NCBI RefSeq assembly: GCF_054482595.1
Contig: NZ_CM137008.1
Length of the DNA stretch: 64,000 nucleotides
Strand: one strand, 5' to 3'
Every line of letters starts with the position of its first letter. The stretch's first letter is position 1. Position numbers and translations under genes: made by a program. Shown here piece by piece: positions 16,229 through 55,762 of this stretch. The notes below the pieces were generated by a model, which worked only from the letters and a program-made list of their open reading frames with translations, was not told the origin of the DNA and did not search any database.

Positions 16229-16285
16229 GGGATTTTTGGTCGGCACGAGAGGATTTGAACCTCCGACCCCCGACACCCCATGACG
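16229..16285. repeat. attL: 57-bp direct repeat containing the displaced 3' 48 nt of tRNA-Pro
   Basis: Identical base-for-base to 55706..55762; positions 16237..16284 are the reverse complement of the tRNA-Pro 3' end including CCA. Confidence 0.85.
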
Positions 16286-16537
16286 CCGCTTGAAAAATGC
16301 TGAGAACCGCGCAATCGCTGGTGGTAGGTACTATTCGCATGTATAAACAAACAGTGCTTTTTTAGCAAAATCCGTTCTATATACATCAATGACTTAGGTG
16401 GTGGTTTCTCCCCATGCCACAAGTAGTGTTGAGCTTTACTGAAGCCACTCCATTGGCCTCTACATGGAAACTAACAAGAAAATGTCAGTTGAAGGAGTTT
16501 TATAAATTCATGTTTTCTTCTTCAGGACAACCCATCA

Positions 16538-16566
16538 CCCGCAGGCACCGCCTGCGGGAATTTTGC
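16538..16566 (+). terminator. Rho-independent terminator
   Basis: Stem CCCGCAGG/CCTGCGGG with loop CACCG, followed by AATTTTG. Confidence 0.5.
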
Positions 16567-16654
16567 GACTGTGTTCGTTTTAAATTATAGATGCATCACC
16601 TGATATTCGTGACATACAAACTATGCATTAGCCAGATCTATACTGGATAAGTAT

Positions 16655-18406
16655 TCATTCTAATGCCTTCTCAATGTTTGTATTTATTTCTGATAAACTA
16701 TTAATTACACCGTCAAATACAAAATCAAGAGCGTTACTATAACCAATTGCTAAAGTAGCTGAATCAAATCCTAGTTTTGCTAAATGCTCAATTGATTTGT
16801 TTACTGCTTCATGAGCTTCAGCATTTCTTAAATCATTATTTATAAAAAACGATGCCACTTTTTTATTTTGAGTTTTAAAATCTGCAAATTCTGTGGCGTG
16901 CTTAAGTACAGATGAGTCTTCATTCTGTTCAATAATTGGCTCGATAAGGTTAAGTAATGATTGAAGTAGTTTCAGAGTTTGGAATTTTTCGATGTCTGAT
17001 TTATTAACACCCATTGCAATTAATAATTTTTTTAAAGAGCCTGATTTAATCTTATTTAAAATCTCATTAATAGTCTTACATCTATTCAAAAAATCCGGTT
17101 CTTGCATGTCATTTGGCGCAACAAATGCTAGCTTCTGCAATACTGGATAGTTAGAGATTCCTTCTGATTCTAACTCTGTGCGATTAATTTCTAAAATGTC
17201 TGCATTGGATAAAGTAACACCAATACTTCTACCAAGTGCTACAAGATTATCGCTAAGTCTTGCTAGTTCTCTAGCGAATTTAAATGTTTTAGATACAATA
17301 TGTTCTCCGCTTAAATCATTTTCAGTGATTTGGTTTGGATCCTTAGCATAATCAAAAACATGATAAACCTCCTCTTCAGGAATTCCTCGATACAGCTCAT
17401 AAAACGGAATTCTGACTAAGTTTCTTCCAACCCTGATGCAATCCCTAAAGGACCATTGTCCACCGTAGCTTGGAGCAACCCTATAAGAATAGCCGTCATA
17501 AAATGGAATAGCATCATATGAAGAATCTTTTTCATATTTAGTAAGGAAAGAGTCATTAACCAAGACATATTCATTGTTTCTGATGTCTTTGGCTCTTGAA
17601 CTCGTCATAGGAGTATCATATCCCGGCCATATTAATTCATCTATATTTAATTTTTTACAAAGTTCAGGCTGAACAGATTGTACACTTCCCCATGCTTGCA
17701 ATAATATATTGTCCCCATTATCTACTATCTCAAAATCTATCCAAGGCAAATCAAACTTGAAATGTTTTGACCCAGACAATAAGTTAATTACTTCCGTCGT
17801 TCTTTGAATACGTGCTTCATAGTAAAAAACACGTACACCAACATAATTTCTCATCCAGAGGTATTTTCTTAGATAATCATTACGCATTGTCCATTTTACA
17901 TCTTTATTACTTCTAAAGTAATACTCGCTTGACACATCCCCTTGTGCGACTCCATAATCGGGCAAGCTTACCTCATCGAAAATGACTTTTTGCTCAGTGT
18001 CACCTATAAGTCTGGGTTTTAGACCAAGCATCATCCATACATCTTCAGCTAAAAAAAATGAAAAGTGAGAACTATCACCCCAAGAAGCTACAATATACTT
18101 ATAACCTGAAATTGATAAACTATAATCTCTTGCTCCGCCTTTAGACCTACAGTCAGGAGTCGAAAATGAAACTAAACCATTAGTAGACTCCTGGAGAACT
18201 TTGATATTATTGATATCTTCTTGTGGTACGGTAGCCATTGTCATATGAGCACACTCATGATTATCTTTAAAAAGATTTTTTTCGTATCTATGTGTGACAA
18301 TGACCTCTTTCTGTGGATTAGTAATATCCTCTATAGATAATAAATCTTTAAGACCTTGAGGGATCTGATCTACTGGTAAAGGTAATTGTGATATATAGTC
18401 AATCAT
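16655..18406 (-). CDS. Hypothetical 583-aa protein (prophage cargo between attL and int)
   Basis: Long uninterrupted ORF in an AT-rich segment with its own AT-rich upstream region; no motif I can assign (no Walker A, HNH or similar). Confidence 0.6.
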   Translation of the reverse strand: MIDYISQLPLPVDQIPQGLKDLLSIEDITNPQKEVIVTHRYEKNLFKDNHECAHMTMATVPQEDINNIKVLQESTNGLVSFSTPDCRSKGGARDYSLSISGYKYIVASWGDSSHFSFFLAEDVWMMLGLKPRLIGDTEQKVIFDEVSLPDYGVAQGDVSSEYYFRSNKDVKWTMRNDYLRKYLWMRNYVGVRVFYYEARIQRTTEVINLLSGSKHFKFDLPWIDFEIVDNGDNILLQAWGSVQSVQPELCKKLNIDELIWPGYDTPMTSSRAKDIRNNEYVLVNDSFLTKYEKDSSYDAIPFYDGYSYRVAPSYGGQWSFRDCIRVGRNLVRIPFYELYRGIPEEEVYHVFDYAKDPNQITENDLSGEHIVSKTFKFARELARLSDNLVALGRSIGVTLSNADILEINRTELESEGISNYPVLQKLAFVAPNDMQEPDFLNRCKTINEILNKIKSGSLKKLLIAMGVNKSDIEKFQTLKLLQSLLNLIEPIIEQNEDSSVLKHATEFADFKTQNKKVASFFINNDLRNAEAHEAVNKSIEHLAKLGFDSATLAIGYSNALDFVFDGVINSLSEINTNIEKALE

Positions 18407-18728
18407 TATAATTTATGCCTTCTATGCTCAGTATTAAATTAAATATTAAATCGAAGTCATCCCCTTGGCAACCTAAATCGTTTGCTGCTAGTACTTCAGT
18501 GTAAGATTAATTATGCAATAGTTTGCAATTGAAATATCTTAAGCTGTAGAAAAATCAATCATACTGATACCTTTTACTTAAGTTTCACTCCTAGGCATGA
18601 TGAACGCTTCCTCAAGATACAGTATTACGCTATGCCTGCAACTTTCACTTGTGGCATAGTAAACCTTTCAATTTAGGTTTAGCCCTGTATAGTAGTAATG
18701 CACGCTTCAAATCTGAGCTAATAAAATT

Positions 18729-19913
18729 TTAACTGGCTTTAATTTCTCCATGTGGTACGACAACCCAATCAATATGGTTTTGCGTATAAATCTTGGTTGA
18801 CTTGGAGTCGCTGTGCGCCATTCGTGCTTGCGGATCGATACCTTGCTGATCGAAAAGATACGCTGCTAATGCTCTAATTTCGTGAAAGGTTGGTCTTTCA
18901 TCTATCGGTAGATTGTCGCATAAACCTAGCTTGTCACGTGTGGCTGAAAACGACCGGCTCAAATAGTCCGGTGCAACTTGAGTAGGGTGTGAAACCTCTT
19001 TGCTGCGTTTAACCTGCCGTTCAGGGATCCTGTGAACGACAAACGGACTGGCCACATTATCTCGGCTATCATCAATTATTCGTTTCAACTCTTCACCAAT
19101 CGGTATTGCAACGTGTGATGCCTCTTTTTTTTGCACTTTTTGCCTGTGGATGTAAAGCGTCCCATATATGCCATTTTGTGGTTGTTCGAACCAGACACAT
19201 CCACATATACCGTCTTTAGGTTCGCGAATTGAGTAACGGATTCGCGATACTTCGAGTCGTGCATGTGTAGTCTGCAATGCTAGGTCCATTGCTGTTCTTA
19301 ACCATGGTGCAGCGGCCTGCCTGATAGCTATAAAATGCTCGAGTGACAGGCGCCGTCTTTTCTTCTCATCAGTCCTACGCATTTTTTTTCTGATGGCCGG
19401 GTTATCCAGCATTAGTGATTCATCGACCGCATAAGAGAACAACTTTTTAAGGAAGCTGACCTTTCTGTTCTGCACATTTGCGGATGCGCAGGCATGATAT
19501 TTATTGATGTAGGTATTAACGTGTTCAAGTGCAATATCGCATGCTGGAACATTTACGAAAAACGCTTTTACGCGTAGAGCGTCATTTTTCCAGTCATCTA
19601 AGGTGCTCTGGGAAGGACGTTCGTCTTCGATAATCCGGGTCATTATGTGATCAACATGTTCAGCAAATGGTTTTGCTTCTCCGATAACACCGCCAGATTC
19701 TCTAATAAGATTATCTACTGATGGAGATAATTCTGGTCGCATCCTCAGGTTGTACTCTCTGGCGATTGCAATGGCTATTGCCCTATCCTTACCTATATTT
19801 TTCTTCTTTCCGGTAATAAGTGTGAATTTATAAACACCTCGATCTTTATCAAAAATCAGATAATCAGGAAGATGTCTGTATTCTTTTTTACGTGGCCTTG
19901 CCGCCATGGTCAC
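18729..19913 (-). CDS. int: Tyrosine-type site-specific integrase (lambda Int family)
   Basis: 394 aa; C-terminal catalytic motifs HEIRAL (HxxR) and KIYTQNH (Tyr nucleophile); lies near attL. Confidence 0.88.
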   Translation of the reverse strand: MTMAARPRKKEYRHLPDYLIFDKDRGVYKFTLITGKKKNIGKDRAIAIAIAREYNLRMRPELSPSVDNLIRESGGVIGEAKPFAEHVDHIMTRIIEDERPSQSTLDDWKNDALRVKAFFVNVPACDIALEHVNTYINKYHACASANVQNRKVSFLKKLFSYAVDESLMLDNPAIRKKMRRTDEKKRRRLSLEHFIAIRQAAAPWLRTAMDLALQTTHARLEVSRIRYSIREPKDGICGCVWFEQPQNGIYGTLYIHRQKVQKKEASHVAIPIGEELKRIIDDSRDNVASPFVVHRIPERQVKRSKEVSHPTQVAPDYLSRSFSATRDKLGLCDNLPIDERPTFHEIRALAAYLFDQQGIDPQARMAHSDSKSTKIYTQNHIDWVVVPHGEIKAS

Positions 19914-20119
19914 CCCTCATTTATTAACTTGCGAACAGCTTGACTAACCATTGAGTCGACTCCCCATTTTTCTGTTTCGCAGACAAAAACAGAACCGTCC
20001 ACGATGCGTCCCATGAGTAGACCGTTCTCGACCCAACGTTTTATCGTTCGGTTGTCAGGAATTGAGCCATTAGAGAATTCACGGCGTCCCCATTGGCTCG
20101 CTTTCATTAGTTTTGCCAT
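19910..20119 (-). CDS. xis: Excisionase (Xis-like DNA-binding protein)
   Basis: Small ORF overlapping int start by 4 nt; RWVENGLL...G motif resembles lambda/HK022 Xis winged helix; start set at MAKLMKAS (ORF could extend to 20164). Confidence 0.65.
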   Translation of the reverse strand: MAKLMKASQWGRREFSNGSIPDNRTIKRWVENGLLMGRIVDGSVFVCETEKWGVDSMVSQAVRKLINEG

Positions 20120-20180
20120 GGCTGTTTCTCCACTTAGCCCGCTGCACACGGGTAGTAATATCAAATTCCAGTCCTGATAA

Positions 20181-20396
20181 TTAATTTTGTTCTCTGGTTG
20201 CTACTTGTTTTATTGGCCTGATGCTGTCCAGGAGCAGACGGCGGCGCATGTTTGGCGCGCCCCAACGGTAACCAGTCTTTTTGTCGTAGGATTCACAACG
20301 TCCGACAACCCAGGAGGTTTCAGTGGAATGTAATTTCATCCGCTTTTCACCGTCTCGGGTGATAACAATTCCTGTATGAGTTTTTATCACGCTCAT
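20181..20396 (-). CDS. Hypothetical small phage protein
   Basis: 71-aa ORF with GGAGA RBS 8 nt upstream; co-oriented with xis and int. Confidence 0.45.
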   Translation of the reverse strand: MSVIKTHTGIVITRDGEKRMKLHSTETSWVVGRCESYDKKTGYRWGAPNMRRRLLLDSIRPIKQVATREQN

Positions 20397-20598
20397 TTTT
20401 TATTCTCCGGTGCTTTCGGCATTACTGCCCAGTGGGTAATATTGACGTTTTCAAGGTCCCCGACCTGAAATGTCCACTGCCATTCTCCGGTTTCTTTTTG
20501 CCCCCAATGTGTACCAGAGAGAACGCCAGCCAATCAGCCAGCCTTCTCCATTAGCATCAAATAACAGAACACTTTCATGTCTGTTTTGTAAAAAGGAC

Positions 20599-20633
20599 GG
20601 TACCAGCCGGAAGCAAGGGTACAAGCTGGTACC
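20599..20633. other. Strong hairpin (9-bp perfect stem) in a structured noncoding region
   Basis: GGTACCAGC ... GCTGGTACC inverted repeat with 17-nt loop, within the GC-rich, stop-codon-dense region 20400..20920. Confidence 0.4.
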
Positions 20634-20920
20634 TCCAAGACTACACACAGCATAAAGTTGTGGTGCCGGGTGCCTCCCGGTGCCTGGCGAAGGTTGCACA
20701 CCAGGCGGGTGGGTATCCACAGAAGGTCGACTGTCAGCCTCAACCTTTACCCGCGTGCGCTGAGCCGCATTCACCACAACGCTAAGGATTCTCTCTGGTT
20801 GAAAATACTTAGCTGTTATGTGCCTGCTTTTAGCCACATCAGGCGAGGTGGACCTAGTTATTCCCCAACAACAAGGATTTGGTTATTATGTAACCCTCCC
20901 CAACAACGATAAGGATTTAT

Positions 20921-21010
20921 ATGGAACGATGTGTAGATAAGTATGAGGAGAGGCATGTGCCGTTAAGGCAAAAGCCTCCAGTTCCTCCAAAACCACCCAA
21001 GGAAAACTGA
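20921..21010 (+). CDS. Micro-ORF (29 aa) encoding proline/lysine-rich peptide ending ...KPPVPPKPPKEN
   Basis: ATG preceded by AAGGA RBS at 6-nt spacing; stop 8 nt before the 21018 gene; shares the PP(K/R)P(K/R)PP motif with two micro-ORFs downstream. Confidence 0.4.
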   Translation: MERCVDKYEERHVPLRQKPPVPPKPPKEN

Positions 21011-21017
21011 GACTAAT

Positions 21018-21512
21018 ATGACCAGAGACGATTATAAATTTTATATTCACTACTCTTATGTATTGGAGAAGATGAATTACACGTTGTTAACTCGTATTGA
21101 TAAATTAATAACGTTGATGTTAATCGTTCTCGGTTTTTCAGTTTTCGCCCCGTACAGTAATTTATTTATTTTCGGTTTGTTTGTTGCCGTACTTTCGGTT
21201 CTTCAGTTGGTCTATCAGTTCGGCCAGGAGGCTGGGATGTCTAAAGAACAAGCGAGGCATTACAAAAGACTGCTGATTGAGTCTGATACTCTTTCTGAAG
21301 ATCAGTTGCAAGCTAGGTATTTAAAAATCCAAGATACCGATAGTAATCCATGGAAATCACTTGAACGAGCGGCTTTCATTCGGGCCTGCATTTTTGCTGG
21401 TGTTCCAACTAAGTACGATCTAACAACCAAAGAAAAATTTATTGCTTGGTGTGCGGGAGATCTACCTCTAGAGAATGAACTAACGGATATTAATGATGAC
21501 CAACAAGCATAA
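21018..21512 (+). CDS. Small membrane protein with two predicted TM helices (moron; possible abortive-infection/superinfection-exclusion effector)
   Basis: 164-aa ORF; two hydrophobic segments (LITLMLIVLGFSVFAP and LFIFGLFVAVLSVLQLVY) then a charged soluble C-terminus; AT-rich; opposite strand to int/xis/cI. Confidence 0.6.
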   Translation: MTRDDYKFYIHYSYVLEKMNYTLLTRIDKLITLMLIVLGFSVFAPYSNLFIFGLFVAVLSVLQLVYQFGQEAGMSKEQARHYKRLLIESDTLSEDQLQARYLKIQDTDSNPWKSLERAAFIRACIFAGVPTKYDLTTKEKFIAWCAGDLPLENELTDINDDQQA

Positions 21513-21567
21513 TCCAGTTCACGGACATGTACCTCCGAAGCCGAAACCACCGAAACCGAAGAAATGA
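21493..21567 (+). CDS. Micro-ORF (24 aa) encoding MMTNKHNPVHGHVPPKPKPPKPKK
   Basis: Overlaps the 3' end of the 21018 gene in another frame; proline/lysine-rich C-terminus. Confidence 0.35.
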   Translation: MMTNKHNPVHGHVPPKPKPPKPKK

Positions 21568-21586
21568 GACATAATAGGATTGGATA

Positions 21587-21655
21587 ATGAGTCGACCAAT
21601 AGAGCCTTTTCATATTCCACCTCGTCCCAGGCCACCAGATCCAGGCCCAAAGTGA
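21587..21655 (+). CDS. Micro-ORF (22 aa) encoding MSRPIEPFHIPPRPRPPDPGPK
   Basis: ATG preceded by AGGA RBS; proline/arginine-rich; followed by a terminator. Confidence 0.35.
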   Translation: MSRPIEPFHIPPRPRPPDPGPK

Positions 21656-21680
21656 GGGTTACTGATTTTTAAAGAGCGAA

Positions 21681-21702
21681 GCGTCCGGTAGGGCGCTTTT
21701 TT
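21681..21702 (+). terminator. Rho-independent terminator ending the small + strand moron operon
   Basis: GCGUCCGGUAGGGCGC 6-bp stem (one G-U pair) with GGUA tetraloop, followed by UUUUUUG. Confidence 0.5.
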
Positions 21703-21818
21703 GTTGCTAACGAATCATCTTGGACTTCATATGCCCCAGGCGGCTACTTCGTGAGCGTCCTGCCTGTTTGTTGTTTCTCTTGGGTACATTATGTATCTCA
21801 AAGGTACATTGTCAAGCA

Positions 21819-21842
21819 TAAAAAAACCTGCCGAAGCAGGTT
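21819..21842 (-). terminator. Rho-independent terminator downstream of cI
   Basis: Minus-strand RNA: ACCUGCUUCGGCAGGU hairpin followed by UUUUUUU, immediately after the cI stop. Confidence 0.65.
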
Positions 21843-21854
21843 CATAAACATTGA

Positions 21855-22529
21855 TTAGGCTTTGATTTTGTATCTTCTTGGTTTTCCTGAGAAAATCACA
21901 GTACCAATTATAGAGCAATTACCGTTGATCTTAATGTAAGGCTCAGGCCAGTTTGGGTTTAACGCTTTGAGATAACGCTGTGTCCCATCTTCTATCAACC
22001 TTTTGAAGGTGGTTTCACCTGTATCGTGCATCAATGCAATAACGTCGTCACCGTGGCAGGCAGGTACTTCAGGATCGACAAAAATCATGTCTCCCGGGCG
22101 GTACTCATCAATCATTGAATCACCTATCACCCGCAAGATATAAGTCATTTCCCCACAGGGTACAGGGCAGGGATACGTTTCTGCTGTGCTCAAATCAACC
22201 TCAGAATATCCAACTTCTTTCCATGCTCCGGCCTGTACCCATGATATGACAGGGACTAATGTGATTTGTTTATTAGTGATTGAAACATCAGGTTTTTTTG
22301 TGATGTTCGTTGTCTGGTGTTCTTGATCGAGCCATCCGACAGGCAGGTCGAAACATTTTTCGATGTGTCGTGCCATGCTGTCACCGATATTTTTAGTAGC
22401 ACCATCTCCCATAAACCTGCTGGTTTGGGTTGGCTCGCGATCAATCATAGTGGCAAAGGAAGAATTCCCGCCAACACCATCTCTCAGTTTTCTGGCGTTA
22501 GACCGCCGGATGTCATGGATTGTTTTCAT
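21855..22529 (-). CDS. Phage cI-like repressor (HTH plus S24 LexA-type peptidase domain)
   Basis: 224 aa; C-terminal part carries the S24 pattern (VIGDSM ... KR, Ser/Lys dyad context); divergent from the cro-like gene. Confidence 0.8.
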   Translation of the reverse strand: MKTIHDIRRSNARKLRDGVGGNSSFATMIDREPTQTSRFMGDGATKNIGDSMARHIEKCFDLPVGWLDQEHQTTNITKKPDVSITNKQITLVPVISWVQAGAWKEVGYSEVDLSTAETYPCPVPCGEMTYILRVIGDSMIDEYRPGDMIFVDPEVPACHGDDVIALMHDTGETTFKRLIEDGTQRYLKALNPNWPEPYIKINGNCSIIGTVIFSGKPRRYKIKA

Positions 22530-22544
22530 AACGAAATTAAAACC

Positions 22545-23750: not shown

Positions 23751-23770
23751 AGGTCGGTCATGAGCACTAA
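23549..23770 (+). CDS. Hypothetical phage protein
   Basis: 73-aa ORF whose stop overlaps the start of the replication gene; globular-looking sequence ([33 protein letters not shown]). Confidence 0.35.
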
Positions 23771-24701
23771 ATTAACCGGCTATGTATGGGATGGTTGCGC
23801 TGCGTCAGGCATGAAGTTATCCAGCGTGGCAATTATGGCCCGCCTGGCTGATTTCAGTAATGACGAAGGTGTGTGCTGGCCATCAATTGAAACCATTGCC
23901 CGCCAGATTGGCGCGGGGATGAGCACCGTCAGAACGGCTATCGCACGGCTGGAAGCAGAAGGCTGGTTAACTCGTAAGGCGCGTCGCCAGGGTAACCGCA
24001 ATGCGTCGAATGTTTATCAGCTTAACGTTGCGAAGCTTCAGGCAGCGGCATTTTCTCAACTGTCAGATTCTGACCCGTCAAAATCTGACGCATCAAAATC
24101 TGACCCGTCAAAATTTGATGCGTCGAAATCTGGCAAAAAAGCGGGTTTTCACCCGTCAGAATCTGGCGGGGATCCGTCAGTAAAATCAAAACATGATCCG
24201 TCAGATAAAAAAAACTCTCGTCCGGACGCTTCGCAACCGGACACGCAGATGGATGAACAGGATTTTTTAACTCGCCATCCTGATGCGGTTGTATTCAGCC
24301 CTAAAAAGCGCCAGTGGGGGACGCAGGATGATTTGACCTGCGCACAGTGGCTCTGGAAAAAAATCATCGCCCTGTACGAGCAGGCTGCCGAATGTGACGG
24401 CGAGGTGGTTCGTCCCAAAGAACCGAACTGGACAGCCTGGGCAAACGAAATTCGCCTGATGTGTGTGCAGGATGGTCGTACTCACAAACAAATCTGCGAG
24501 ATGTACAGCCGCGTCAGCCGCGATCCGTTCTGGTGCCGTAACGTGCTCAGCCCGTCGAAGCTGCGGGAAAAATGGGATGAGCTTTCCCTGCGCTTATCGC
24601 CGTCCGTAAGCACGTACACCGAAAAACGCGAAGACCCGTACTTCAAATCCAGTTACGACAACGTGGACTACAGCCAGATCCCGGCAGGATTCAGGGGGTG
24701 A
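23760..24701 (+). CDS. Phage replication initiation protein (N-terminal HTH, central SKSD repeat linker, DnaT-like C-terminus)
   Basis: 313 aa; N-terminal winged-helix-like region (IARQIGAGMSTVRTAIARLEAEGWL); repeat peptide DPSKSDASKSDPSKFDASKSG encoded by DNA iterons; position equivalent to lambda O. Confidence 0.7.
   Translation: MSTKLTGYVWDGCAASGMKLSSVAIMARLADFSNDEGVCWPSIETIARQIGAGMSTVRTAIARLEAEGWLTRKARRQGNRNASNVYQLNVAKLQAAAFSQLSDSDPSKSDASKSDPSKFDASKSGKKAGFHPSESGGDPSVKSKHDPSDKKNSRPDASQPDTQMDEQDFLTRHPDAVVFSPKKRQWGTQDDLTCAQWLWKKIIALYEQAAECDGEVVRPKEPNWTAWANEIRLMCVQDGRTHKQICEMYSRVSRDPFWCRNVLSPSKLREKWDELSLRLSPSVSTYTEKREDPYFKSSYDNVDYSQIPAGFRG
24069..24128. repeat. Four tandem 15-bp iterons (TCTGACNCNTCAAAA) inside the replication gene, putative ori
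   Basis: Direct repeats, each with internal dyad GTCA-AAAT-CTGAC, followed by further CCGTCAG motifs and an A-rich tract; same layout as lambda ori inside O. Confidence 0.55.
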
Positions 24702-46895: not shown

Positions 46896-47971
46896 ACGAC
46901 AATGTCACGCTACGGGTAAATGGCCGGGAGTGGAATGGCTGGACATCGGTGCGCATCGGTGCCGGTATTGAACGGCTGGCACGGGATTTCAGTGTGGAGA
47001 TCACCCGCCAGTGGCCGGGAGATGAGGGTATCACCACGCTTCAGCCGCGTATTAAAAACGGTTCAAAAGTGGAAGTTCTGATTAGTGATGAACTGGTGAT
47101 CACCGGCTGGGTGGAGGCGACGCCCGTTCGTTACGATGCCCGTTCGGTCAGCACCGGTATTGCCGGACGCAGTCTGACCGCTGACCTGATTGACTGTGCA
47201 GCCGAACCGACACAGTTTAACGGACGATCGCTGGTACAGATTGCGCAGGCGCTTGCTGCGCCTTTCGGCATTGAGGTGGTGAACAACGGTGCGCCGTCGG
47301 GCGTTATTCCTGATGTCCAGCCTGATCACGGCGAAACGGTGATTGAGGTGATCAACAAAATACTCGGTCAGCAGCAGGCACTGGCTTACGACGACCCGCA
47401 CGGCAGGCTGGTGATTGGCGGTATTGGCTCAACGCGGGCACATACCGCGCTTGTACTCGGGGAAAACATCCTTTCCTGCGATACGGAGAAGAGTATCCGG
47501 GAGCGGTTTTCTGTTTACCAGGTGGCGGGGCAGCGTGCCGGAAACGACGATGATTTCGGTGAGGCCACCACCACCGCGCTGCGGGCCCGCACAGAGGACG
47601 CATTTATTTCCCGTTACCGTCCGATGTATATCAGGCAGACAGGGCAGGCCACGGGGGCAGGCTGTATTGCCCGTGCTGACTTTGAAGCCCGACAACGGGC
47701 GGCGCGGACGGATGAAACCACCTATGTGGTGCAGGGCTGGCGACAGGGTAACGGTACGCTGTGGCAGCCCAACCAGCGGGTGATTGTCTTCGATCCGGTC
47801 TGTGGTTTCGACAATACCGAACTGCTTGTCTCGGAAGTCACGTTTACTCTGGACCAGAACGGCACCCTGACGGAAATCCGTGTCGGCCCACCTGATGCTT
47901 ATCTGCCTGAACCCGAAGCCCCCGGCGCGCGGAAAAAGAAAAAAGCCAGAGTACAGGAGGACCCGTTCTGA
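46892..47971 (+). CDS. Baseplate hub protein (Mu gpP-like)
   Basis: 359 aa; conserved Mu-like tail gene order. Confidence 0.65.
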   Translation: MNDNVTLRVNGREWNGWTSVRIGAGIERLARDFSVEITRQWPGDEGITTLQPRIKNGSKVEVLISDELVITGWVEATPVRYDARSVSTGIAGRSLTADLIDCAAEPTQFNGRSLVQIAQALAAPFGIEVVNNGAPSGVIPDVQPDHGETVIEVINKILGQQQALAYDDPHGRLVIGGIGSTRAHTALVLGENILSCDTEKSIRERFSVYQVAGQRAGNDDDFGEATTTALRARTEDAFISRYRPMYIRQTGQATGAGCIARADFEARQRAARTDETTYVVQGWRQGNGTLWQPNQRVIVFDPVCGFDNTELLVSEVTFTLDQNGTLTEIRVGPPDAYLPEPEAPGARKKKKARVQEDPF

Positions 47972-48519
47972 TGAGTACGATTGAAGCCATGCAGCGACAA
48001 CTCCTCGGCCTGATTGGGCGGGCCGTGGTGAAAAGCATCAGTGCCGCCACGAAATGTCAGACCGTGGATGTGTCCCTGATTGCCGGTGAACCCAAAGCCG
48101 GGGTTGAACATCTTGAACCCTACGGTTTTACCGCAAGGGCAAACAGCGGTGCGGAAGCGGTGGTGTTGTTTCCGGATGGCGACCGTTCTCATGCGGTGGT
48201 TGTTACGGTGTCGGACCGGCGCTACCGCCTGAAAGGGCTGCAGACGGGTGAGGTGGCTGTCTATGACGATCAGGGGCAGTCCGTGACACTGACCCGGGAG
48301 GGGATCGTGGTGGACGGTGCAGGTAAAACGATCACGTTTTGCAATTCACCTAAAGCACGTTTTGAAATGGACCTTGAAGTGACCGGACAGGTGAAAGACC
48401 TGTGCGACTCCGGCGGCACCACCATGTCAGCGATGCGGCTTGCCTATAACGGGCATCGTCACAGAGAGAACGGTCAGGGCAGTAACACCGACAAACCTGA
48501 TAAAGCGATGGAGGCATGA
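47971..48519 (+). CDS. Baseplate assembly protein V / spike (Mu gp45-like)
   Basis: 182 aa; conserved position. Confidence 0.65.
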   Translation: MSTIEAMQRQLLGLIGRAVVKSISAATKCQTVDVSLIAGEPKAGVEHLEPYGFTARANSGAEAVVLFPDGDRSHAVVVTVSDRRYRLKGLQTGEVAVYDDQGQSVTLTREGIVVDGAGKTITFCNSPKARFEMDLEVTGQVKDLCDSGGTTMSAMRLAYNGHRHRENGQGSNTDKPDKAMEA

Positions 48520-48944
48520 TGGAACTGTGGCTGACGGTGAACGGTAAACGCACCTGCGCCAGCGCACCGCTGGATCCGCTGACCCGCGCCGTGGTGATTT
48601 CCATGTTTACCTGGCGGCGGGCGGAGCCTGATGACAATGCCGACGTCCCGATGGGATGGTGGGGGGATACCTGGCCTGCGGTACAGAATGACCGTTACGG
48701 CTCCCGACTGTGGCTGCTTCAGCGCAGCAAACTGACCAATCAACTGGTGCAGACGGTAAGGGGGTATATCCGCGAATGCCTGCAATGGATGATTGATGAC
48801 GGCGTGGTGTCCCGTATTGATCTGGATATCCGCCGCACCGGGATTAATGAACTGGGTAACAGTATCACTCTCTGGCGTCGTGACGGACCGGTAATGATTT
48901 CTTTTGATGATCTGTGGAGTGCGATAACGCATGGCGGACAGTGA
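48516..48944 (+). CDS. Baseplate protein (GP46 family)
   Basis: 142 aa; conserved position. Confidence 0.6.
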   Translation: MMELWLTVNGKRTCASAPLDPLTRAVVISMFTWRRAEPDDNADVPMGWWGDTWPAVQNDRYGSRLWLLQRSKLTNQLVQTVRGYIRECLQWMIDDGVVSRIDLDIRRTGINELGNSITLWRRDGPVMISFDDLWSAITHGGQ

Positions 48945-49989
48945 ATTTCAGCGCCCGACGCTGGCAGAAAATATCAGTATGCTCCGTAACGATTTATTCG
49001 CCAGGCTGGACGTCAGCGACACGCTCCGGCGCATGGATGAAGACGTGCGGGCAAAGGTGTATGCGGCGGCGCTGCATACGGTTTACGGGTACATCGATTA
49101 TCTGGCAATGAACATGCTGCCTGATCTGTGCGATGAGTCCTGGCTGGCGCGACATGCTGCGATGAAACGGTGTCCGCGCAAGGGGGCCACGGCTGCCAGC
49201 GGGTATATGCGCTGGGAAGGTGTCAGCGATGGCCTGAAGGTGACCGCCGGAAGTGTTATTCAGCGCGATGACCTGGTTCAGTACACGGCAACTGCCGATG
49301 CAACCAGCACCGGTGGTGTCCTGCGCGTGCCGATCGCCTGCTCAAGTGCAGGCGCGGTCGGTAACGCTGACGACGGTACGTCATTAATTTTGGTCACGCC
49401 GGTTAATGGTCTGCCGTCTTCCGGCGAGGCAGATACCCTGACAGGTGGATTTGATACTGAAGAGCTGGAAACGTGGCGCGCCCGCGTCATTGAGCGGTAT
49501 TACTGGACGCCTCAGGGCGGGGCTGACGGGGACTATGTCGTCTGGGCTAAAGAAGTGCCCGGCATTACCCGCGCATGGACATACCGACACTGGATGGGAA
49601 CGGGGACTGTCGGTGTGATGATTGCCAGCAGTGACCTGATTAACCCCATTCCGGAAGAATCAACGGAAACGGCGGCAAGACAACATATCGAGCCACTGGC
49701 CCCGGTGGCAGGCTCTGATTTGTATGTATTCAGGCCGGTGGCGCACAAAGTGGATTTTCATATCCGCGTGACGCCGGACACACCGGAAATACGGGCTGCC
49801 ATCACCGCGGAGTTGCGTTCATTCCTGCTACGTGATGGTTATCCGCAGGGAGAGCTGAAGGTATCGCGTATCAGTGAAGCGATTTCCGGTGCGAACGGGG
49901 AATACAGCCATCAGTTGCTTGCTCCGGCGGACAATATCTCCATTGCAAAAAATGAACTGGCGGTTCTGGGGACGATTTCATGGACGTGA
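48931..49989 (+). CDS. Baseplate J-like protein (Mu gp47-like)
   Basis: 352 aa; conserved position. Confidence 0.7.
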
Positions 49990-50564
49990 CAAACGATGAT
50001 TACATCCGTCTGTTGTCGGCACTGTTGCCCCCTGGTCCGGCGTGGTCAGCCAGCGATCCGGCGATTGCCGGTGCGGCACCGTCATTAACCCGTGCTCATC
50101 AGCGTGCGGATGCCCTGATGCGGGAGCTGGATCCGCGCACCACCACCGAACTGATAAACCGCTGGGAGCGTCTGTGCGGCCTGCCGGATGAATGTATTCC
50201 GGCAGGGACGCAGACCCTTCGCCAGCGTCAGCAACGGCTGGATGCGAAGGTTAACCTGGCGGGCGGCATCAATGAGGATTTTTACCTTGCGCAGCTTGCT
50301 GCCCTGGGCAGACCAGATGCCACCATCACGCGATACGACAAAAGCACGTTCACCTGCTCATCGGCCTGTACTGACGCGGTGAATGCGCCGGAATGGCGGT
50401 ATTACTGGCAGGTCAATATGTCAGCTGCCACCAACACCACCTGGATGACATGTGGCGATCCCTGCGATTCCGCACTGCGTATCTGGGGGGACACCGTTAT
50501 CGAGTGCGTGCTTAACAAACTCTGCCCATCGCATACCTACGTAATTTTTAAATATCCGGAGTAA
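49980..50564 (+). CDS. Tail protein (Mu gp48 / YmfQ-like, DUF2313)
   Basis: 194 aa directly preceding the tail fibre gene, as e14 ymfQ precedes stfP. Confidence 0.6.
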
Positions 50565-50567
50565 TCC

Positions 50568-51494
50568 ATGCATCGTATAGACACGAAAACCGCGCAAAAG
50601 GATAAGTTCGGCGCGGGTAAGAACGGTTTTACCCGTGGTAACCCCCAGACAGGCACGCCTGCCACCGATCTGGATGATGACTACTTTGACATGTTGCAGG
50701 AAGAGCTCTGCAGCGTGGTGGAGGCATCCGGTGCCAGCCTGGAGAAGGGGCGGCATGACCAGCTGCTTACCGCGCTTCGTGCGCTGCTGTTAAGTCGCAA
50801 AAATCCGTTTGGCGATATCAAATCGGACGGCACGGTGAAAACGGCTCTTCAAAACCTTGGTTTGGGAGATACAAGCGGATACGTGGGACGCCGGCTGAGT
50901 ACCCGGGTTTTCACGTCATCAGGTACGTACACCCCGACGCCAGGAACAAAACGGATCAGGGTCACAATAACGGGCGGCGGTGGCGGAGGGGGCGGCTGCA
51001 AGGCTATATCCAATAATGAAACGTTTTTCGGTGCTGGCGGTGGGGCCGGTGGAACAATAATTTCAATAATGACCCCGACACAGAATAGTTATCCAGTCAC
51101 TATCGGCGCAGGTGGGGCCGGTGGTGTTAGTGCGACGAACGGCACCAGGGGCGGGAATAGCGTATTCGCATCGTTAATTGCTCCTGGTGGCGCAGGCGGC
51201 GGAAAGTCAGGAGTCACAAACACAAACGGTGGTAACGGCGGCGTGCCAAGTACTGGCGGTATCAACATCATTGGTGGAAATGGAGGCGACGGTCAGTCCG
51301 GAAATATCGGCGTCAGCGGTGAAGGCGGAACATCGTACTGGGGGGGCGGTGGACGCGCAGGCGCTGGCGGTGGTGTTAGTGGTAAGGCATATGGTTCAGG
51401 TGGCGGTGGCGCATACGATGCCGGTTATAGCGGAACCAGTATGACAGGCGGGAAAGGTGCTGCTGGGATTTGTATTATCGAGGAGTTTGCATAA
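50568..51494 (+). CDS. Tail fibre protein (constant N-terminus plus glycine-rich variable C-terminus in active orientation)
   Basis: 308 aa; conserved N-terminal about 95 aa, then Gly-rich repeats ([26 protein letters not shown]); inversion crossover site lies inside at 50852..50869. Confidence 0.8.
50852..50869. repeat. Invertase crossover site (left), AAACC-TT-GGTTTGGGAGA
   Basis: hix/gix-like core AAACC-NN-GGTTT; 17 of 18 nt match the reverse complement of 52678..52695. Confidence 0.65.
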
Positions 51495-51904
51495 TGAATG
51501 CGTCATATGCAGTTATTGAAAATGGGATGGTTGTGAATGTCATTGTCTGGGATGGCGAGGCTGAATTCACAGTGCCGGATAATCAGCAGCTCATTGATAT
51601 TTCTGATATCAGTGAGCATCCCGGAATCGGCTGGGGGTATTCAGACGGGGTATTTACTGCGCCGCTCCCTCCGGAACGTTCTCATGATGAACTGGTAGCT
51701 GACGCTGAACAGAAAAAACAGTCGCTGATAGACGCAGCAATGGCCAATATCAGCGTGATTCAGTTAAAGCTGCAGGCCGGGCGCAAACTGACGCAAGAAG
51801 AAACTACCCGACTTAACGTTGTGCTGGATTACATTGACGCGGTGACAGCAACTGATACCAGCACCGCGCCAGATGTCATCTGGCCTGAACTGCCGGAGGC
51901 GTAG
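51494..51904 (+). CDS. Tail fibre assembly protein (Tfa), active orientation
   Basis: ATG overlaps fibre stop (TAATG) with AGGAG RBS; C-terminal conserved Tfa tail (W/PELPE); mirrored by a convergent Tfa paralogue. Confidence 0.75.
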   Translation: MNASYAVIENGMVVNVIVWDGEAEFTVPDNQQLIDISDISEHPGIGWGYSDGVFTAPLPPERSHDELVADAEQKKQSLIDAAMANISVIQLKLQAGRKLTQEETTRLNVVLDYIDAVTATDTSTAPDVIWPELPEA

Positions 51905-52316
51905 GCCATTCAATATCTGGCCCACTGGAAGTATCGACCAGCTCCAGTGCGTCCAGATAATCCAGCCACAAATTATATTGCGCCAGTTCCTCACCTTTCA
52001 GACGACCAATAGCCGCTTTACCAGCCCATTGTTTACTGTTCATATAATCGTTAGCCTGATTAATCAATTGCTGCTTTTCCAGTTCGGCTGCAGCAATCTG
52101 TTCCTCATGTGTTGGTGGTGGAATTTCAGACCATGCAGGAAAACCATTTTCTCCAGCGATACGGATTTTTCCTTTCGGCGGTAATCCGGAAAACTCAATA
52201 TACGCTTGCTCATCAACTTCAACAGCATCATCTGGCCATGAGTCAGCTTGAGTGTAATCCTCTTTCATTTCCAGTGGATAGAAAGAGTTTGTAGTCGCGG
52301 AATATATGTAATTCAT
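51876..52316 (-). CDS. Tail fibre assembly protein (Tfa'), alternative, in inverted orientation
   Basis: 146 aa; convergent with tfa; C-terminus DIEWPTPPAVQAR similar to the active Tfa. Confidence 0.7.
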   Translation of the reverse strand: MNYIYSATTNSFYPLEMKEDYTQADSWPDDAVEVDEQAYIEFSGLPPKGKIRIAGENGFPAWSEIPPPTHEEQIAAAELEKQQLINQANDYMNSKQWAGKAAIGRLKGEELAQYNLWLDYLDALELVDTSSGPDIEWPTPPAVQAR

Positions 52317-52337
52317 TTTTCACTCCATATAGCTAAA

Positions 52338-52700
52338 TTAACAGCCTAACGCTAAAAATGAAGCGCCGAGACCTGGAGTACTGGCTCTGGATATAAATTT
52401 AACCGGGTCGGAACTAAAACCTGCGCAGGCAATATAACCAACAGACCCGCTATCTGGTGTGTAGTCTTGTGAGACCAAAACACGCAGACATCGGTTTGGA
52501 AATGCAATCGGAAAATGGGTTACCACATCCTGTGCAATGCCTGGTGCGCCGATTGAGCCCCACTGAAGAATAAAACCAGATGGTAATTTTTGATATCCAG
52601 TACCTGAAACAGAAAGCGTGAAGCTACCCATATCAGGTATCTGATTCGTCCCTGTCCCCACATTCCTTTTTGCCGCTTCTCCCAAACCAACGTTTATGAA
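52338..52700 (-). other. Alternative tail-fibre variable C-terminal coding segment (promoterless, inverted orientation)
   Basis: Open frame on minus strand from the right crossover site to 52338, Gly/Ser-rich like fibre tips; would be fused to the constant fibre N-terminus after inversion. Confidence 0.6.
52678..52695. repeat. Invertase crossover site (right), inverted relative to 50852..50869
   Basis: Reverse complement AAACGTTGGTTTGGGAGA matches the left site with one mismatch. Confidence 0.65.
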
Positions 52701-52756
52701 AATGCAGAAATAACAAGCAAATGGCATCATTCCTGCTTTTGTCAGGGAGATCTATC

Positions 52757-52885
52757 ATGCTTATTGGTTATGTACGCGTATCAACAAATGACCAGAATAC
52801 CGATCTACAACGCAATGCGCTGAACTGTGCAGGGTGTGAGCTGATTTTTGAAGACAAGATAAGCGGTACAAAGTCCGAGACCTAG
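52757..52885 (+). pseudogene. Truncated serine DNA invertase (Pin/Gin/Hin family), N-terminal 42 codons only
   Basis: MLIGYVRVSTNDQNTDLQRNALNCAGCELIFEDKISGTKSET then stop; matches the invertase N-terminus including the catalytic Ser region; remainder replaced by unrelated AT-rich DNA. Confidence 0.8.
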
Positions 52886-52980
52886 GGCTGACACTGCTGT
52901 TCTTGATGCAAATTAAAGGATTTAATAGTGAGTAGCGGCCTTACTAATGTAAGGCCGCTATAATCATTTTATTAATTGCA

Positions 52981-54930
52981 TTAATCGTGTTTTGGCCATA
53001 CTTTCAATGCAATTTCCCCCAACTTTTTACCCCGCTCCAGGATTTCATCCTCATCCCATTTATCCTTAACTATAAGTGGAATGTTCAGTCGTAGATTGGT
53101 GTGGACGATGAGAGCATCACGTTTTTTCAGAAATACAGCATTCTGAACAGAACGGTTTACGCTAAGGTTAAGCAAAGTTAGATTTCCCAACGTAGCTATC
53201 GCTTGTTGCCGTTTCCTTACCAGTAGCTGTTCAGGGGTAAGATCGGTTCCAGACAGAACAATTTGGTTCAATACCGTAGCATCTGAATTTGTCACCATAT
53301 GACCATTTTCGAGAGGCCAACAGGAAAACCAACTTTGAGGCATAAGATGATCGATATCGAGATTGGAAAGATTTGGACCATCAGGCTTCTCTGTCTTCAC
53401 TTGGCGACAAAGTTCTCTTTCAAGTTCCGTTAACATTGAGCGCATTTTCGGTGCGTCGAGCCTGCCAGGATAAAGTGGAGCATTGATGCAAGCATTGAGA
53501 AATTCTGAGTCACCAGGCCAACGTGAGGCTTCGCCATTTAAGCTATTGAGGATATTACGTAACTCAACACTGGAAATTTCCGTTTTAGACAAGTGCCGCA
53601 ATACATTCATAAATACATTGTTGTAATTCTTTGGCGTCAGGCCACATACGGCTCTTCGTACTACGTAGGAGACAAGATCATTATACATGGCTGCTTTCTC
53701 ATCATCAGCGATGTTAGCTATCGAAATGAACAAAGCAAGCGGATAAAGTGTCGTCACATCATAGTCTGCGATGCGATATCCAAAGTGTGAGATGGGGGTT
53801 GTGCCAAAACCATCAACCAATTCTTTATATTGTGATGCATATTGTTTGAGGCGCTTTACTTGCAGATCTGCTCGTTGTGAAGACAAGTCCTTACTTACAT
53901 AATCACGATACTCATTGTAAAGGCGAGACAGATCAATTTCACGCTGCCTTTCTGATTGCAATGTCGCATGTACTAGCCACTCCATGCGTGGTTTATTAAT
54001 ACGTCCACGGCGTTGCTTTTCCGACCAGTATTTATCTTCAAAGCTCTTCCACTCATTTTCATATAATTCAATAGCATTAATATTTTCATGCTCAGCGCAC
54101 ATAAAGATATAGTTGCGAATAAGATCCGTGGCATGAAGTTCCGCCCCTCGCCCATTTAATGTTTCAAAAATTATTTGGGCATCATCTTCAGCTTCGAGAA
54201 ATATGCTTACCAGTTTCAGATCTGTTAAGACAGCCTCAATTAGAGCTACAGCATTTTCTTGTGGTGAGTGGTTTTCTATTTTAATCCATTTTATAAAGGC
54301 TTCAGTAAAAAAACATAATGCTTCTAGTGATGGCGGGTGATTAAAATGCTTACGCAACGTACCATGCTGCGTGAAACTATCAGAGAATACGTCCCGGAGA
54401 TCGTCAATATTTTCAACATTAAAACTTTGAATAAAATGAGTTTGATCCCGAAAAGTTGGCCATAGTTTGAAGCGTTCTACTTCTTTATTTCGCATTGTGT
54501 CTTCGTTTGAGTTTTTCAGGCAAGGCGAAATGAGAGCCTCTAAGCTGAAAAGATCCGTAGCACGTAATGCTAATCGGATGGATGCCAGAACATATTGAAG
54601 AGTGGTCAATCGTTGCTGACCATCAATAATATGTATGGAATCTACACCTAATAATCCTTTTTTTGATTGAGGTTCCAGTACAACCGCACCAAGGAAATGG
54701 GGAGTTGGTTTTGTACCCGAGAGCCGGGATTGTGCTTTCTCTAGGATATCCTCCAGTAGAGCTGACCATTGGTCTTGCTGAGTCCATACATAGGCACGTT
54801 GATAGAATGGAACACAGTATTGTCGGCGGTCTTGAAAAAGTTGTTGGACAGTTAGCGTCTCGGATTTCATGGTATACCTGTAAGCGACATTGTACAAAAG
54901 TGAGGAGTTAATCTGATTTAGAACAATCAT
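52981..54930 (-). CDS. GmrSD-like type IV restriction endonuclease family protein (N-terminal DUF262, C-terminal DUF1524/HNH-like)
   Basis: 649 aa; DUF262 motifs (YCVPFYQRAYVW, IIDGQQRLTTL) and C-terminal His-Me finger region (LDIDHLMPQSW ... NLTLLNLSVNRS); AT-rich. Confidence 0.75.
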   Translation of the reverse strand: MIVLNQINSSLLYNVAYRYTMKSETLTVQQLFQDRRQYCVPFYQRAYVWTQQDQWSALLEDILEKAQSRLSGTKPTPHFLGAVVLEPQSKKGLLGVDSIHIIDGQQRLTTLQYVLASIRLALRATDLFSLEALISPCLKNSNEDTMRNKEVERFKLWPTFRDQTHFIQSFNVENIDDLRDVFSDSFTQHGTLRKHFNHPPSLEALCFFTEAFIKWIKIENHSPQENAVALIEAVLTDLKLVSIFLEAEDDAQIIFETLNGRGAELHATDLIRNYIFMCAEHENINAIELYENEWKSFEDKYWSEKQRRGRINKPRMEWLVHATLQSERQREIDLSRLYNEYRDYVSKDLSSQRADLQVKRLKQYASQYKELVDGFGTTPISHFGYRIADYDVTTLYPLALFISIANIADDEKAAMYNDLVSYVVRRAVCGLTPKNYNNVFMNVLRHLSKTEISSVELRNILNSLNGEASRWPGDSEFLNACINAPLYPGRLDAPKMRSMLTELERELCRQVKTEKPDGPNLSNLDIDHLMPQSWFSCWPLENGHMVTNSDATVLNQIVLSGTDLTPEQLLVRKRQQAIATLGNLTLLNLSVNRSVQNAVFLKKRDALIVHTNLRLNIPLIVKDKWDEDEILERGKKLGEIALKVWPKHD

Positions 54931-55673
54931 TTTATTTTGCTATGATACAACGTATTTGTTACCGGTTAAGCAAAAAACGCGTCTGAACGCTGACGTTTTA
55001 GGGCTTTACTGGTTATTCTTTCTTATCTCTTCATCATCCCATCGGCATCCTGTCGAGGTTGTTGACTTGTTGTTATTTATTTTGTCTAGGCGCTGTTTAA
55101 TTATTATTGATAGAACTGATGGTGAGAGGTGATTGAAACCGTAGGCACGTCGTTTGCAAGGACGTGCTACGACTGGCTGGTGAATTTCCGATAGTGCGAG
55201 TATTGAATGATTTCCTACGTGCTAACTAGTGAACAAACAACTCTTCAGTAGACTCTCAGGTATCATTCAGAGTTTCCTGAACGAAAGTTTTAGCTCAATC
55301 TTTATCTGCAGTATGTCTAACTGAAAAACTATCGTTGCTGGTGGCTTTTACGATCATCTCCACATCGTCATAACGCTTGCCAATGTGTTGGGTTAATTCT
55401 TCCTTTAACGCGTCCACAGCGCCGTTTGGCATTTGGTCATTTGTCTTTGGCTATGGAGATCTCAATACGCATAACACTTCTTTTGTACTGCGTTTGTAGA
55501 CAGTATTATTCTTATCTGTGTAAATAAACAGTATCAAGACTTCGTTTTAGCTGCATAAGAAAAAAGAGATGGATACATTCGGAAAGCTTTTGATGGTGGT
55601 AGGCTAAGTGAATAGCCTAAAGGTGTTTTACCCCAATTATTCCCCGGTATTTCTCCGCATAAAAAACAATCAT

Positions 55674-55703
55674 AAAAAAACCAGCCATAATAGGCTGGTT
55701 TTT
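55674..55703. terminator. Bidirectional rho-independent terminator (phage-borne homologue of the proL terminator)
   Basis: Stem CCAGCC/GGCTGG with loop ATAATA flanked by A-run and T-run; lies just 3' of the restored tRNA-Pro. Confidence 0.65.
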
Positions 55704-55705
55704 AA

Positions 55706-55762
55706 GGGATTTTTGGTCGGCACGAGAGGATTTGAACCTCCGACCCCCGACACCCCATGACG
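55706..55762. repeat. attR: 57-bp direct repeat (overlaps 3' part of intact proL)
   Basis: Identical to 16229..16285. Confidence 0.85.

Follow-up and report, generated by a model that had tools for sequence, protein, structure and literature searches.

An SfV-like prophage at proL whose attachment site appears to carry a homologue of the 3΄ end of its target transcription unit

INTRODUCTION

When a temperate phage integrates within a tRNA gene, what becomes of the 3΄ end of that gene and of the terminator that follows it? This question is raised by the proL locus, which encodes tRNA-Pro(GGG), in a stretch of 64,000 nucleotides of contig NZ_CM137008.1 (NCBI RefSeq assembly GCF_054482595.1), hereafter called the window. 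The gene is occupied there by an element of 39.5 kb, which appears from its sequence to be an intact SfV-like temperate myovirus equipped with a different, lambda-type module of integrase (Int) and excisionase (Xis). A preliminary description of the window had proposed a prophage bounded by 57-bp direct repeats, carrying its own diverged copy of the tRNA 3΄ flank and terminator that had been captured from a different host.

We compared the boundaries of the element with empty sites, with free phages and with the proL loci of other Enterobacterales. The results make it very likely that an SfV-like phage was integrated at proL by a lambda-type tyrosine integrase, and that its attachment site, attP, supplies a cassette which replaces the 3΄ portion of proL. 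This tRNA-targeting phage family carries a homologue of the whole 3΄ end of its target unit, terminator included. In the literature, no explicit earlier description of a terminator-carrying attP at proL was found.

RESULTS

The element lies between exact repeats of part of proL

Positions 16229–16285 and 55706–55762 form an exact direct repeat, and a recount gave the 57 bp originally claimed. Identity ends immediately outside the repeat on both sides (T at 16228 against A at 55705, and C at 16286 against G at 55763), and chance recurrence of an exact 57-mer in 64 kb is ruled out. Between positions 14000 and 58000, the only further direct repeats of at least 25 nt were the origin iterons and three weak families of 25–27 nt. 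ARAGORN detected one tRNA in the window, the intact tRNA-Pro(GGG) on the minus strand, in agreement with Rfam, and the Rfam scan yielded nothing besides this tRNA and an rplY leader. The repeat consists of 8 nt of the 3΄ trailer (55706–55713) and 49 nt of the tRNA (nucleotides 29–77), one more than the 48 nt that had been ascribed to phage DNA. How many of these nucleotides are in fact phage-derived depends on the position of the crossover, which cannot be read because the repeat sequences are identical.

To reconstruct the unoccupied locus, we joined the left flank, one copy of the repeat and the right flank into a synthetic attB of 1257 nt. The preliminary description had suggested a comparison with a prophage-free proL locus; the joined sequence was 100% identical over its entire length to the empty site of E. 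coli XH990. In 3784 of 5426 complete E. coli genomes it was contiguous, meaning that a single piece covered at least 80% of it; the locus is annotated there as yejO, tRNA-Pro and yejM. Because the joined flanks recreate this empty site, the host is E. coli and positions 16286–55705 are foreign. The displaced host-type 3΄ fragment and the native terminator are retained at attL, contiguous with yejO as in empty sites, which agrees with the original interpretation.

The attR arm of the type found in the window was present in 248 of the 5426 genomes. proL is a documented integration hot spot at which tandem occupancy occurs: a conserved prophage lies there in Shiga toxin-producing E. coli O121:H19 (PMC8767318), and a gtrIC element with a P4-type integrase in Shigella flexneri 1c (PMC4924310).

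The integration module is shared with the free phages Eeyore and Flotzy

The predicted Int aligns over its full length with lambda Int structures and contains the box I arginine, the HxxR motif, the second histidine and the tyrosine; its Pfam catalytic-domain score falls under the curated cut-off. It shares 77% sequence identity with Int from Escherichia phage Eeyore (PP925821), which, like phage Flotzy (PP925827), was isolated as a free phage. The small gene overlapping the int start is considered a putative excisionase gene from its position and size only. Its product shows a weak, sub-threshold helix–turn–helix match and is 84% identical to that of the Eeyore gene upstream of int. The earlier statement that int and xis are intact is thus upheld, with Xis as a putative assignment.

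We then assembled a synthetic attP from the two inner flanks of the prophage. This sequence aligned to the int-proximal regions of Eeyore and Flotzy on both sides of the tRNA segment, and a corresponding attP was present in the free phage genomes of Eeyore, Flotzy and Phi06_2987. In Eeyore and Flotzy, the layout is that of the window phage: a P arm with TTCCCC repeats, the terminator cassette, the tRNA-Pro 3΄ segment and the P΄ arm (Table 1). The TTxCCCC motifs of the P arm are conserved in both phages and in occupied sites of other genera. The P΄ arm contains a conserved block of approximately 60 nt with an IHF-like ATCAA-N4-TTA pattern. Within this arm, we located a candidate IHF-like site, ATCAATGACTTA, at 16385–16396 and a candidate arm-type site, GGTTTCTCCCCATG, near 16403–16416, with a single TTxCCCC at approximately 16406. 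We regard the TTxCCCC motifs as candidate arm-type Int sites and the IHF-like sequence as a candidate bending site.

The window phage differs from Eeyore and Flotzy in several respects. The trailers of these two phages are GATAATAATTT and CAATGTGTTTT, and their identity with E. coli proL is shorter (approximately 50 nt), beginning at tRNA nucleotide 32, at the edge of the anticodon loop. In the window phage, by comparison, the identical stretch takes in a further 3 nt of the anticodon stem and a further 3–4 nt of the trailer. Crossover in the anticodon loop is known for this integrase class and is also most likely here; the start of identity at nucleotide 32 in Eeyore and Flotzy fits such a position. 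Moreover, these phages have an intact invertase gene, and intact dinI and umuD-like genes where the window phage has a dinI stub. In both, int abuts attP, whereas in the window phage an inserted open reading frame, ORF583, separates int from the P΄ arm.

The two boundary hairpins are homologous and predicted to be terminators

Next to each repeat is a hairpin, with the positions and sequences given in the preliminary description. The hairpin at attL comprises CCAACC (16205–16210), the loop GTAAG and GGTTGG (16216–16221), and that at attR comprises CCAGCC (55681–55686), the loop ATAATA and GGCTGG (55693–55698). When folded with their A- and T-tracts, they reached –15.1 and –19.3 kcal/mol, respectively (z of approximately –5.9 for both), and 0 of 200 shuffled sequences were as stable. 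Both also fit a simple intrinsic-terminator pattern, that is, a GC-containing stem–loop followed by a U-run on the transcribed strand, and both are predicted from their sequences to function as terminators in vivo. Because empty sites show yejO contiguous with the CCAACC hairpin, this hairpin is assigned as the native proL terminator, which would act bidirectionally and serve the convergent yejO as well. In the lysogen, the displaced tRNA fragment and the int/ORF583 transcription unit are both upstream of this hairpin.

The attR flank differs from the host-type flank at attL, in accordance with the earlier proposal that the trailer and terminator at attR are diverged copies brought by the phage. 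The two hairpins were said to share an architecture and to differ in sequence. The former statement stands, whereas the latter is too simple: in the alignment of the sequences left of the repeat, phage and host agree at 27 of 34 positions, including the CAT/TAT-A7 tract and the T-run. The stems match at 5 of 6 positions, the sole change being compensatory, from A:T in the host to G:C in the phage. In BLAST searches, 91 nt of the phage side aligned to empty E. coli sites with 90–92% identity. These alignments indicate that the two hairpins are homologous and not merely analogous.

The phage cassette could serve both proL and int

On this basis, we propose that attP acts as a cassette of approximately 95 bp that stands in for the 3΄ portion of the proL transcription unit. 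It would extend from the anticodon stem to the CCA end and include a short trailer and a bidirectional intrinsic terminator, flanked by arms with TTxCCCC repeats. Strand exchange within the shared tRNA segment would yield an intact proL at attR with a phage-derived 3΄ part, trailer and terminator, and would displace the host 3΄ fragment and terminator to attL, downstream of the co-oriented int and ORF583. In the circular phage, the predicted order on the minus strand is xis, int, ORF583, P΄ arm, tRNA segment, trailer, hairpin, P arm and gmrSD. In the free phage, the hairpin would end transcripts from the int side and any convergent transcription as well, because A- and T-tracts are present on both sides. 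In the lysogen, the same hairpin would end proL transcription approximately 10 nt past the CCA, before the GmrSD cargo gene, and the displaced host hairpin would take over behind int and ORF583. Both transcription units would thereby keep a terminator in both states.

The phage may instead keep the hairpin mainly for its own use, as a bidirectional terminator or an element resembling lambda sib/tI, the service to proL being incidental; we consider this reading somewhat less likely than not. In Eeyore and Flotzy, the hairpin lies between the convergent umuD-like and int genes, approximately 135 nt past the int stop codon. The A- and T-tracts on both sides of the hairpin and the common orientation of int, ORF583 and the tRNA fragment point the same way. 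However, in its sequence, spacing and flanking tracts, the phage hairpin is a homologue of the chromosomal proL terminator and not a generic hairpin. In addition, unrelated elements at proL also bring terminator-like hairpins after the tRNA, which argues for a requirement on the tRNA side. In P4-type islands of Pectobacterium and relatives, a canonical terminator (CCCGCA...TGCGG followed by U7) lies approximately 45 nt from the CCA. A strict terminator scan found none in the proL flank of a second integrative element in E. coli strain 50EVA, and we initially regarded this flank as terminator-less; this view was dropped because RNAfold shows a weaker terminator-like hairpin approximately 60–95 nt from the CCA. 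Such cases suggest a general need to replace the 3΄ flank of the tRNA. The two roles of the hairpin are not mutually exclusive.

In the 2002 classification of K. P. Williams, lambda-family integrases that use tRNA genes reportedly share identity with their targets from the anticodon stem–loop to the 3΄ end; P22 at thrW is an example of such an integrase. The window phage resembles this class in its repeat from the anticodon stem to the CCA, its regenerated gene and its arm-binding integrase. It differs in that homology continues through the trailer and terminator and in that attP stands between int and the regenerated tRNA. As with lambda tI/sib, the hairpin is located just beyond attP, downstream of int in the circle, and is parted from int by integration. 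Unlike in lambda, the integrated int faces a homologous host terminator, and differential retroregulation is not expected; a sib-like retroregulator would be matched by hairpin position only.

The same target is used by the gtrIC island of S. flexneri 1c (PMC4924310), the O121:H19 prophage (PMC8767318) and the second 50EVA element; such islands carry a P4-like int adjoining the regenerated tRNA, with flanks and terminator-like hairpins unrelated to those of the window phage. In 50EVA (positions 1–13060 of the extracted locus L004, NZ_CP138412), the same prophage as in the window stands in tandem with this second element, which encodes a P4-type integrase, a relaxase and an ABC-three-component system; the two elements share the middle tRNA fragment.

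The cassette is widespread in phages and chromosomes

We queried viral contigs with a 46-nt tRNA segment, obtaining at least 120 stretches. In most of the matches listed, the segment was followed by an A-tract, CCAGCC, a loop, GGCTGG and a T-tract. For chromosomes, we used one genome per species and extended the segment into the intact tRNA, which gave 118 loci across Enterobacterales. When both scans were pooled, the cassette was present in 143 of 190 unique flanks adjoining tRNA-Pro 3΄ ends among the matches listed, counts that share descent and are not independent events. Within these 143 listed matches, the variable stem pair was G:C in 102, A:T in 38, A:C in 3 and G:T in 0, and the outer pair also showed the compensatory variants GCAGCC/GGCTGC and TCAGCC/GGCTGA. 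Such variation is the mark of a maintained hairpin.

We counted a locus as unoccupied if its cassette directly adjoins a host gene and is not preceded by TTCCCC arm repeats. As narP is usable as a marker for Escherichia and Citrobacter only, eco, mqo and other abutting host coding sequences were added. The CCAACC allele was found at unoccupied proL loci of Escherichia, several Citrobacter species, Superficieibacter, Lelliottia sp. WAP21 and Huaxiibacter. The CCAGCC allele was found in Enterobacter cloacae, E. quasihormaechei, E. asburiae, E. mori and E. soli and, further, in Pluralibacter, Kluyvera and Klebsiella pneumoniae ATCC 13883. One small membrane-protein gene adjoins the G-type cassette in E. 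cloacae and the A-type cassette in Lelliottia and Huaxiibacter; therefore, both alleles evolve on chromosomes. Loci with phage P arms likewise carry either allele, namely the G-type at L176, L197 and L159 and the A-type at L157 (C. youngae), L178 and L216. Four of these (L159, L157, L178 and L216) had been taken as native loci by their trailers and were dropped from that group because phage P arms are present.

These data bear on whether the phage recently took its trailer and terminator from a proL in a different genus, whether through aberrant excision or through homologous recombination in the approximately 90 bp of homology. The phage allele is the one native to Enterobacter, Pluralibacter, Kluyvera and K. 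pneumoniae, and the cassettes of Eeyore and Flotzy are identical at 42 of 44 positions to that of the E. asburiae chromosome and at 41 of 44 to that of Lelliottia nimipressuralis, respectively. Furthermore, the 8-nt trailer of the window phage is that of E. coli, of which the sister phages share 4–5 nt, and this suggests an exchange of flank segments. However, among the 118 species representatives, no chromosome exceeded 39 of 44 positions in identity to the window phage cassette (Pluralibacter metagenome-assembled genome and E. chuandaensis); identity to its own host was approximately 36 of 45. The same cassette type occurs in most of the listed viral matches, so it is an old part of attP, and phage P arms stand beside both alleles, whose similarity does not give the direction of transfer. 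We consider a recent capture doubtful.

Accordingly, of the earlier proposal that the 3΄ end and terminator were captured from a different host, the non-Escherichia type of the phage-borne proL 3΄ flank is supported. Capture itself is plausible, but no donor was found among the 118 species representatives, and phages with the CCAACC allele also exist. Throughout the family, the cassette is a long-standing component of attP and not a recent acquisition.

Whether transfer ran from host to phage or from phage to host cannot be read from similarity, and the cassette might move in both directions, a host copy being overwritten through decay of a prophage or recombination of the flanks. Two-way exchange would explain the near-identical cassettes in E. 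coli phages and Enterobacter/Lelliottia chromosomes, and part of the native diversity of proL terminators in Enterobacteriaceae would then be phage-derived. A search of the 5426 E. coli genomes found no empty site bearing the phage-type cassette; the best full-length match (98.7%) has the host-type cassette. Overwriting from phage to host in E. coli is therefore unsupported, and because of this negative result we rate two-way exchange as improbable.

Two further observations concern proL 3΄ ends. Another conserved flank, GGGGTTTCCGGTAGTAAACGATACTAACCG followed by the CCCGCA...TGCGG terminator, was observed in Pectobacterium, Brenneria, Dickeya, Raoultella and Klebsiella (loci including L140, L141, L160, L173, L191, L224, L225, L234–L237, L174, L207 and L223). 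A P4-type integrase is often located approximately 190 nt away; at some Klebsiella/Raoultella loci, a host-looking gene lies approximately 180–240 nt away instead, and the flank could be an island scar. In Gifsy-2 (NC_010393; positions 2001–2079 of the extracted locus L002, 44256–44334 of the record), a cassette fossil lies downstream of the effector gene sseI. It reads AAAAAAAACAGCC-CTGACA-GGCTGG-T5 and is accompanied by approximately 33 nt of the tRNA-Pro 3΄ end, which suggests that the sseI end derives from a proL-type attP region.

The prophage is probably able to excise

Excision competence may be expected from the identical cores, the intact Int and putative Xis, the conserved arms and the complete lysis and morphogenesis modules. 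The opposite reading, that of a fixed, defective prophage that no longer excises or forms particles, would account for the truncated invertase and dinI genes (the latter a 45-aa remnant at 55295–55432 on the minus strand, adjoining the P arm) and for an early gene annotated as frameshifted in the copy of strain 50EVA. Nevertheless, the two att cores match exactly, neither Int nor the putative Xis is damaged, and isolated phages have conserved arms of the same kind; the set of lysis, head and tail genes is complete, and the damaged genes are accessory. We judge a defective state to be rather unlikely. Activity is further favoured by the occurrence of the attR arm in 248 of the 5426 genomes and by the 50EVA prophage, which is 100% identical over the 23.8 kb compared and lies in a different local context; its RefSeq annotation shows a full gene set.

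Several points nonetheless weigh against our interpretation of the locus. Owing to the three damaged genes (the frameshifted early gene, the invertase stub and the dinI stub), lytic competence is not certain. The use of the terminators is deduced from sequence, the arm-type sites consist of a repeated motif only, and the identity of the two sequences hides the point of crossover. By contrast, the notion that the hairpins are alike only because intrinsic terminators, with their short GC stems and T-runs, resemble each other is effectively refuted by the alignments, given the identical A7 tract, the match at 5 of 6 stem positions with a compensatory pair, the same distance to the CCA and the intermediate variants that join both types across the 143 listed sequences.

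The gene content is that of the SfV group

The preliminary description had also suggested a search for the nearest relatives and had regarded the mosaic composition as notable. The nearest relatives are the SfV group for the head and tail genes and Eeyore and Flotzy for Int and attP. The mosaic of lambdoid, HK97 and Mu-like parts is the standard architecture of the SfV group (PMC3851460) and in that respect is not notable. SfV, SfI, SfII, SfIV and the induced coliphage vB_EcoM-689R6 share with the window phage the gene order (PMC3851460), the structural genes and much of the lambdoid early region. The packaging, head and tail genes have 96–97% nucleotide identity to these phages, with 97% for the contractile-tail module against SfV, SfI and SfII, and matches to SfIV and related phages cover much of the early region. 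The int-attP region had no match to SfV-group records, in which matches start at query position 4064 or beyond, past int. SfV-group phages are inserted at thrW and carry gtr serotype-conversion genes beside attP (PMC3851460), whereas the window phage is located at proL, has an unrelated Int, Xis and attP, and carries GmrSD and ORF583 as cargo instead of gtr.

The early and regulatory genes comprise the integrase gene, the small gene upstream, and genes for a LexA-type repressor, a cro-like protein, an O-like initiator, RusA and Q. Six iterons with a period of 15 bp (TCAAAATCTGACSCR) lie within the O-like gene at 24048–24170 and presumably mark the phage origin. The packaging and head genes encode an HNH protein, a P27-type small terminase, a large terminase, a portal protein, an HK97 protease and the capsid protein. 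The features are listed in Table 1.

Table 1. Features of the prophage and of its insertion site in the window
Feature	Position	Strand	Basis or remark
Native E. coli proL terminator (predicted), A7-CCAACC-GTAAG-GGTTGG-T7	16198..16228	-	Contiguous with yejO in empty sites; fold
attL core, repeat copy 1	16229..16285		8-nt trailer (16229-16236) and displaced tRNA-Pro 3΄ fragment, nucleotides 29-77 (16237-16285)
P΄ arm of attP	16286..16450		Block conserved with Eeyore and Flotzy; alignment, motif scan
ORF583, low-GC cargo gene between P΄ arm and int	16655..18406	-	
Lambda-type tyrosine integrase with arm-binding N-terminal domain	18729..19913	-	Pfam Arm-DNA-bind_1; 394 aa
Putative excisionase, 69 aa, overlapping the int start	19910..20119	-	84% identical to Eeyore gene upstream of int
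CI-like repressor (LexA/S24 peptidase family)	21855..22529	-	Divergent cro-like and early genes to the right
O-like replication initiator gene	23760..24701	+	
Two-gene insert between Q and holin gene, 35% GC	28108..30310	-	PHROG 5023 protein and NA37 protein
Lysis cassette: lambda-family holin, GH24 lysozyme, Rz	30601..31865	+	
Small and large terminase, portal, HK97-family prohead protease, major capsid protein	33182..38698	+	
Contractile-tail module: sheath, tube, tape measure, DNA-circulation, baseplate V/gp46/J, fibre	40882..51494	+	
Invertible tail-fibre segment	50852..52695		18-nt inverted repeats at 50852-50869 and 52678-52695
Pin/Gin-type DNA invertase stub	52721..52885	+	54-aa open reading frame, approximately 40 invertase residues
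GmrSD-family type IV restriction enzyme, defence cargo adjoining attP	52981..54930	-	Pfam GmrSD_N, GmrSD_C
P arm of attP	55620..55673		TTxCCCC motifs at 55629, 55640 and approximately 55652
Phage-borne terminator (predicted), A7-CCAGCC-ATAATA-GGCTGG-T5	55674..55703	-	Fold; kept in attP relatives
attR core, repeat copy 2	55706..55762		
Intact tRNA-Pro(GGG), proL	55714..55790	-	ARAGORN, Rfam

As a whole, the element is an ordinary SfV-type phage with a proL-specific lambda-type integration module, which will not surprise specialists. The self-supplied tRNA 3΄ end, trailer and terminator are a conserved feature of this phage integration family. For a prophage type found in approximately 5% of complete E. 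coli genomes, the analysis establishes exact boundaries, the anatomy of attP and the closest relatives, and the proL-specific Int/attP module could serve as an integration tool. In addition, the cassette homologues, with their compensatory stem variation and alleles matching those of other genera, constitute a data set on the origin of attP and its co-evolution with targets.

Cargo genes, fibre switch and reverse-strand genes

The att-proximal GmrSD, the ORF583 family and the insert between Q and the holin gene are of interest for surveys of anti-phage defence. The GmrSD gene was assigned by PADLOC to mREase_IV with 1418 bits, and ORF583 is a candidate defence gene. In the insert, the PHROG 5023 protein has a weak match, below the cut-off, to the NCBIfam family 'DS1_2 anti-phage protein', and the second gene encodes an NA37 (YejK-like) nucleoid-associated protein. 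This pair may be a defence or moron module at the place where Shiga toxin (Stx) phages carry stx.

The preliminary description had further mentioned an e14-like fibre switch. Its inversion sites are present, as are the alternative fibre C-termini, which lie with tail-fibre assembly genes in opposite orientations within the invertible segment. However, no intact serine invertase gene was found beside this segment, where the 54-aa stub is all that remains: the C-terminal three quarters of the Pin-type invertase have been replaced by insertion of the GmrSD gene. The switch is thus a relic in cis with persisting inversion sites, and a resident invertase might flip the fibre segment in trans.

Finally, two reverse-strand morons were noted within late operons. 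One (45010–45456), between the tape-measure and DNA-circulation genes, encodes an OB-fold, Sie-like superinfection-exclusion protein, and the other (31897–32238), after the lysis genes, encodes a Bor/Iss lipoprotein.

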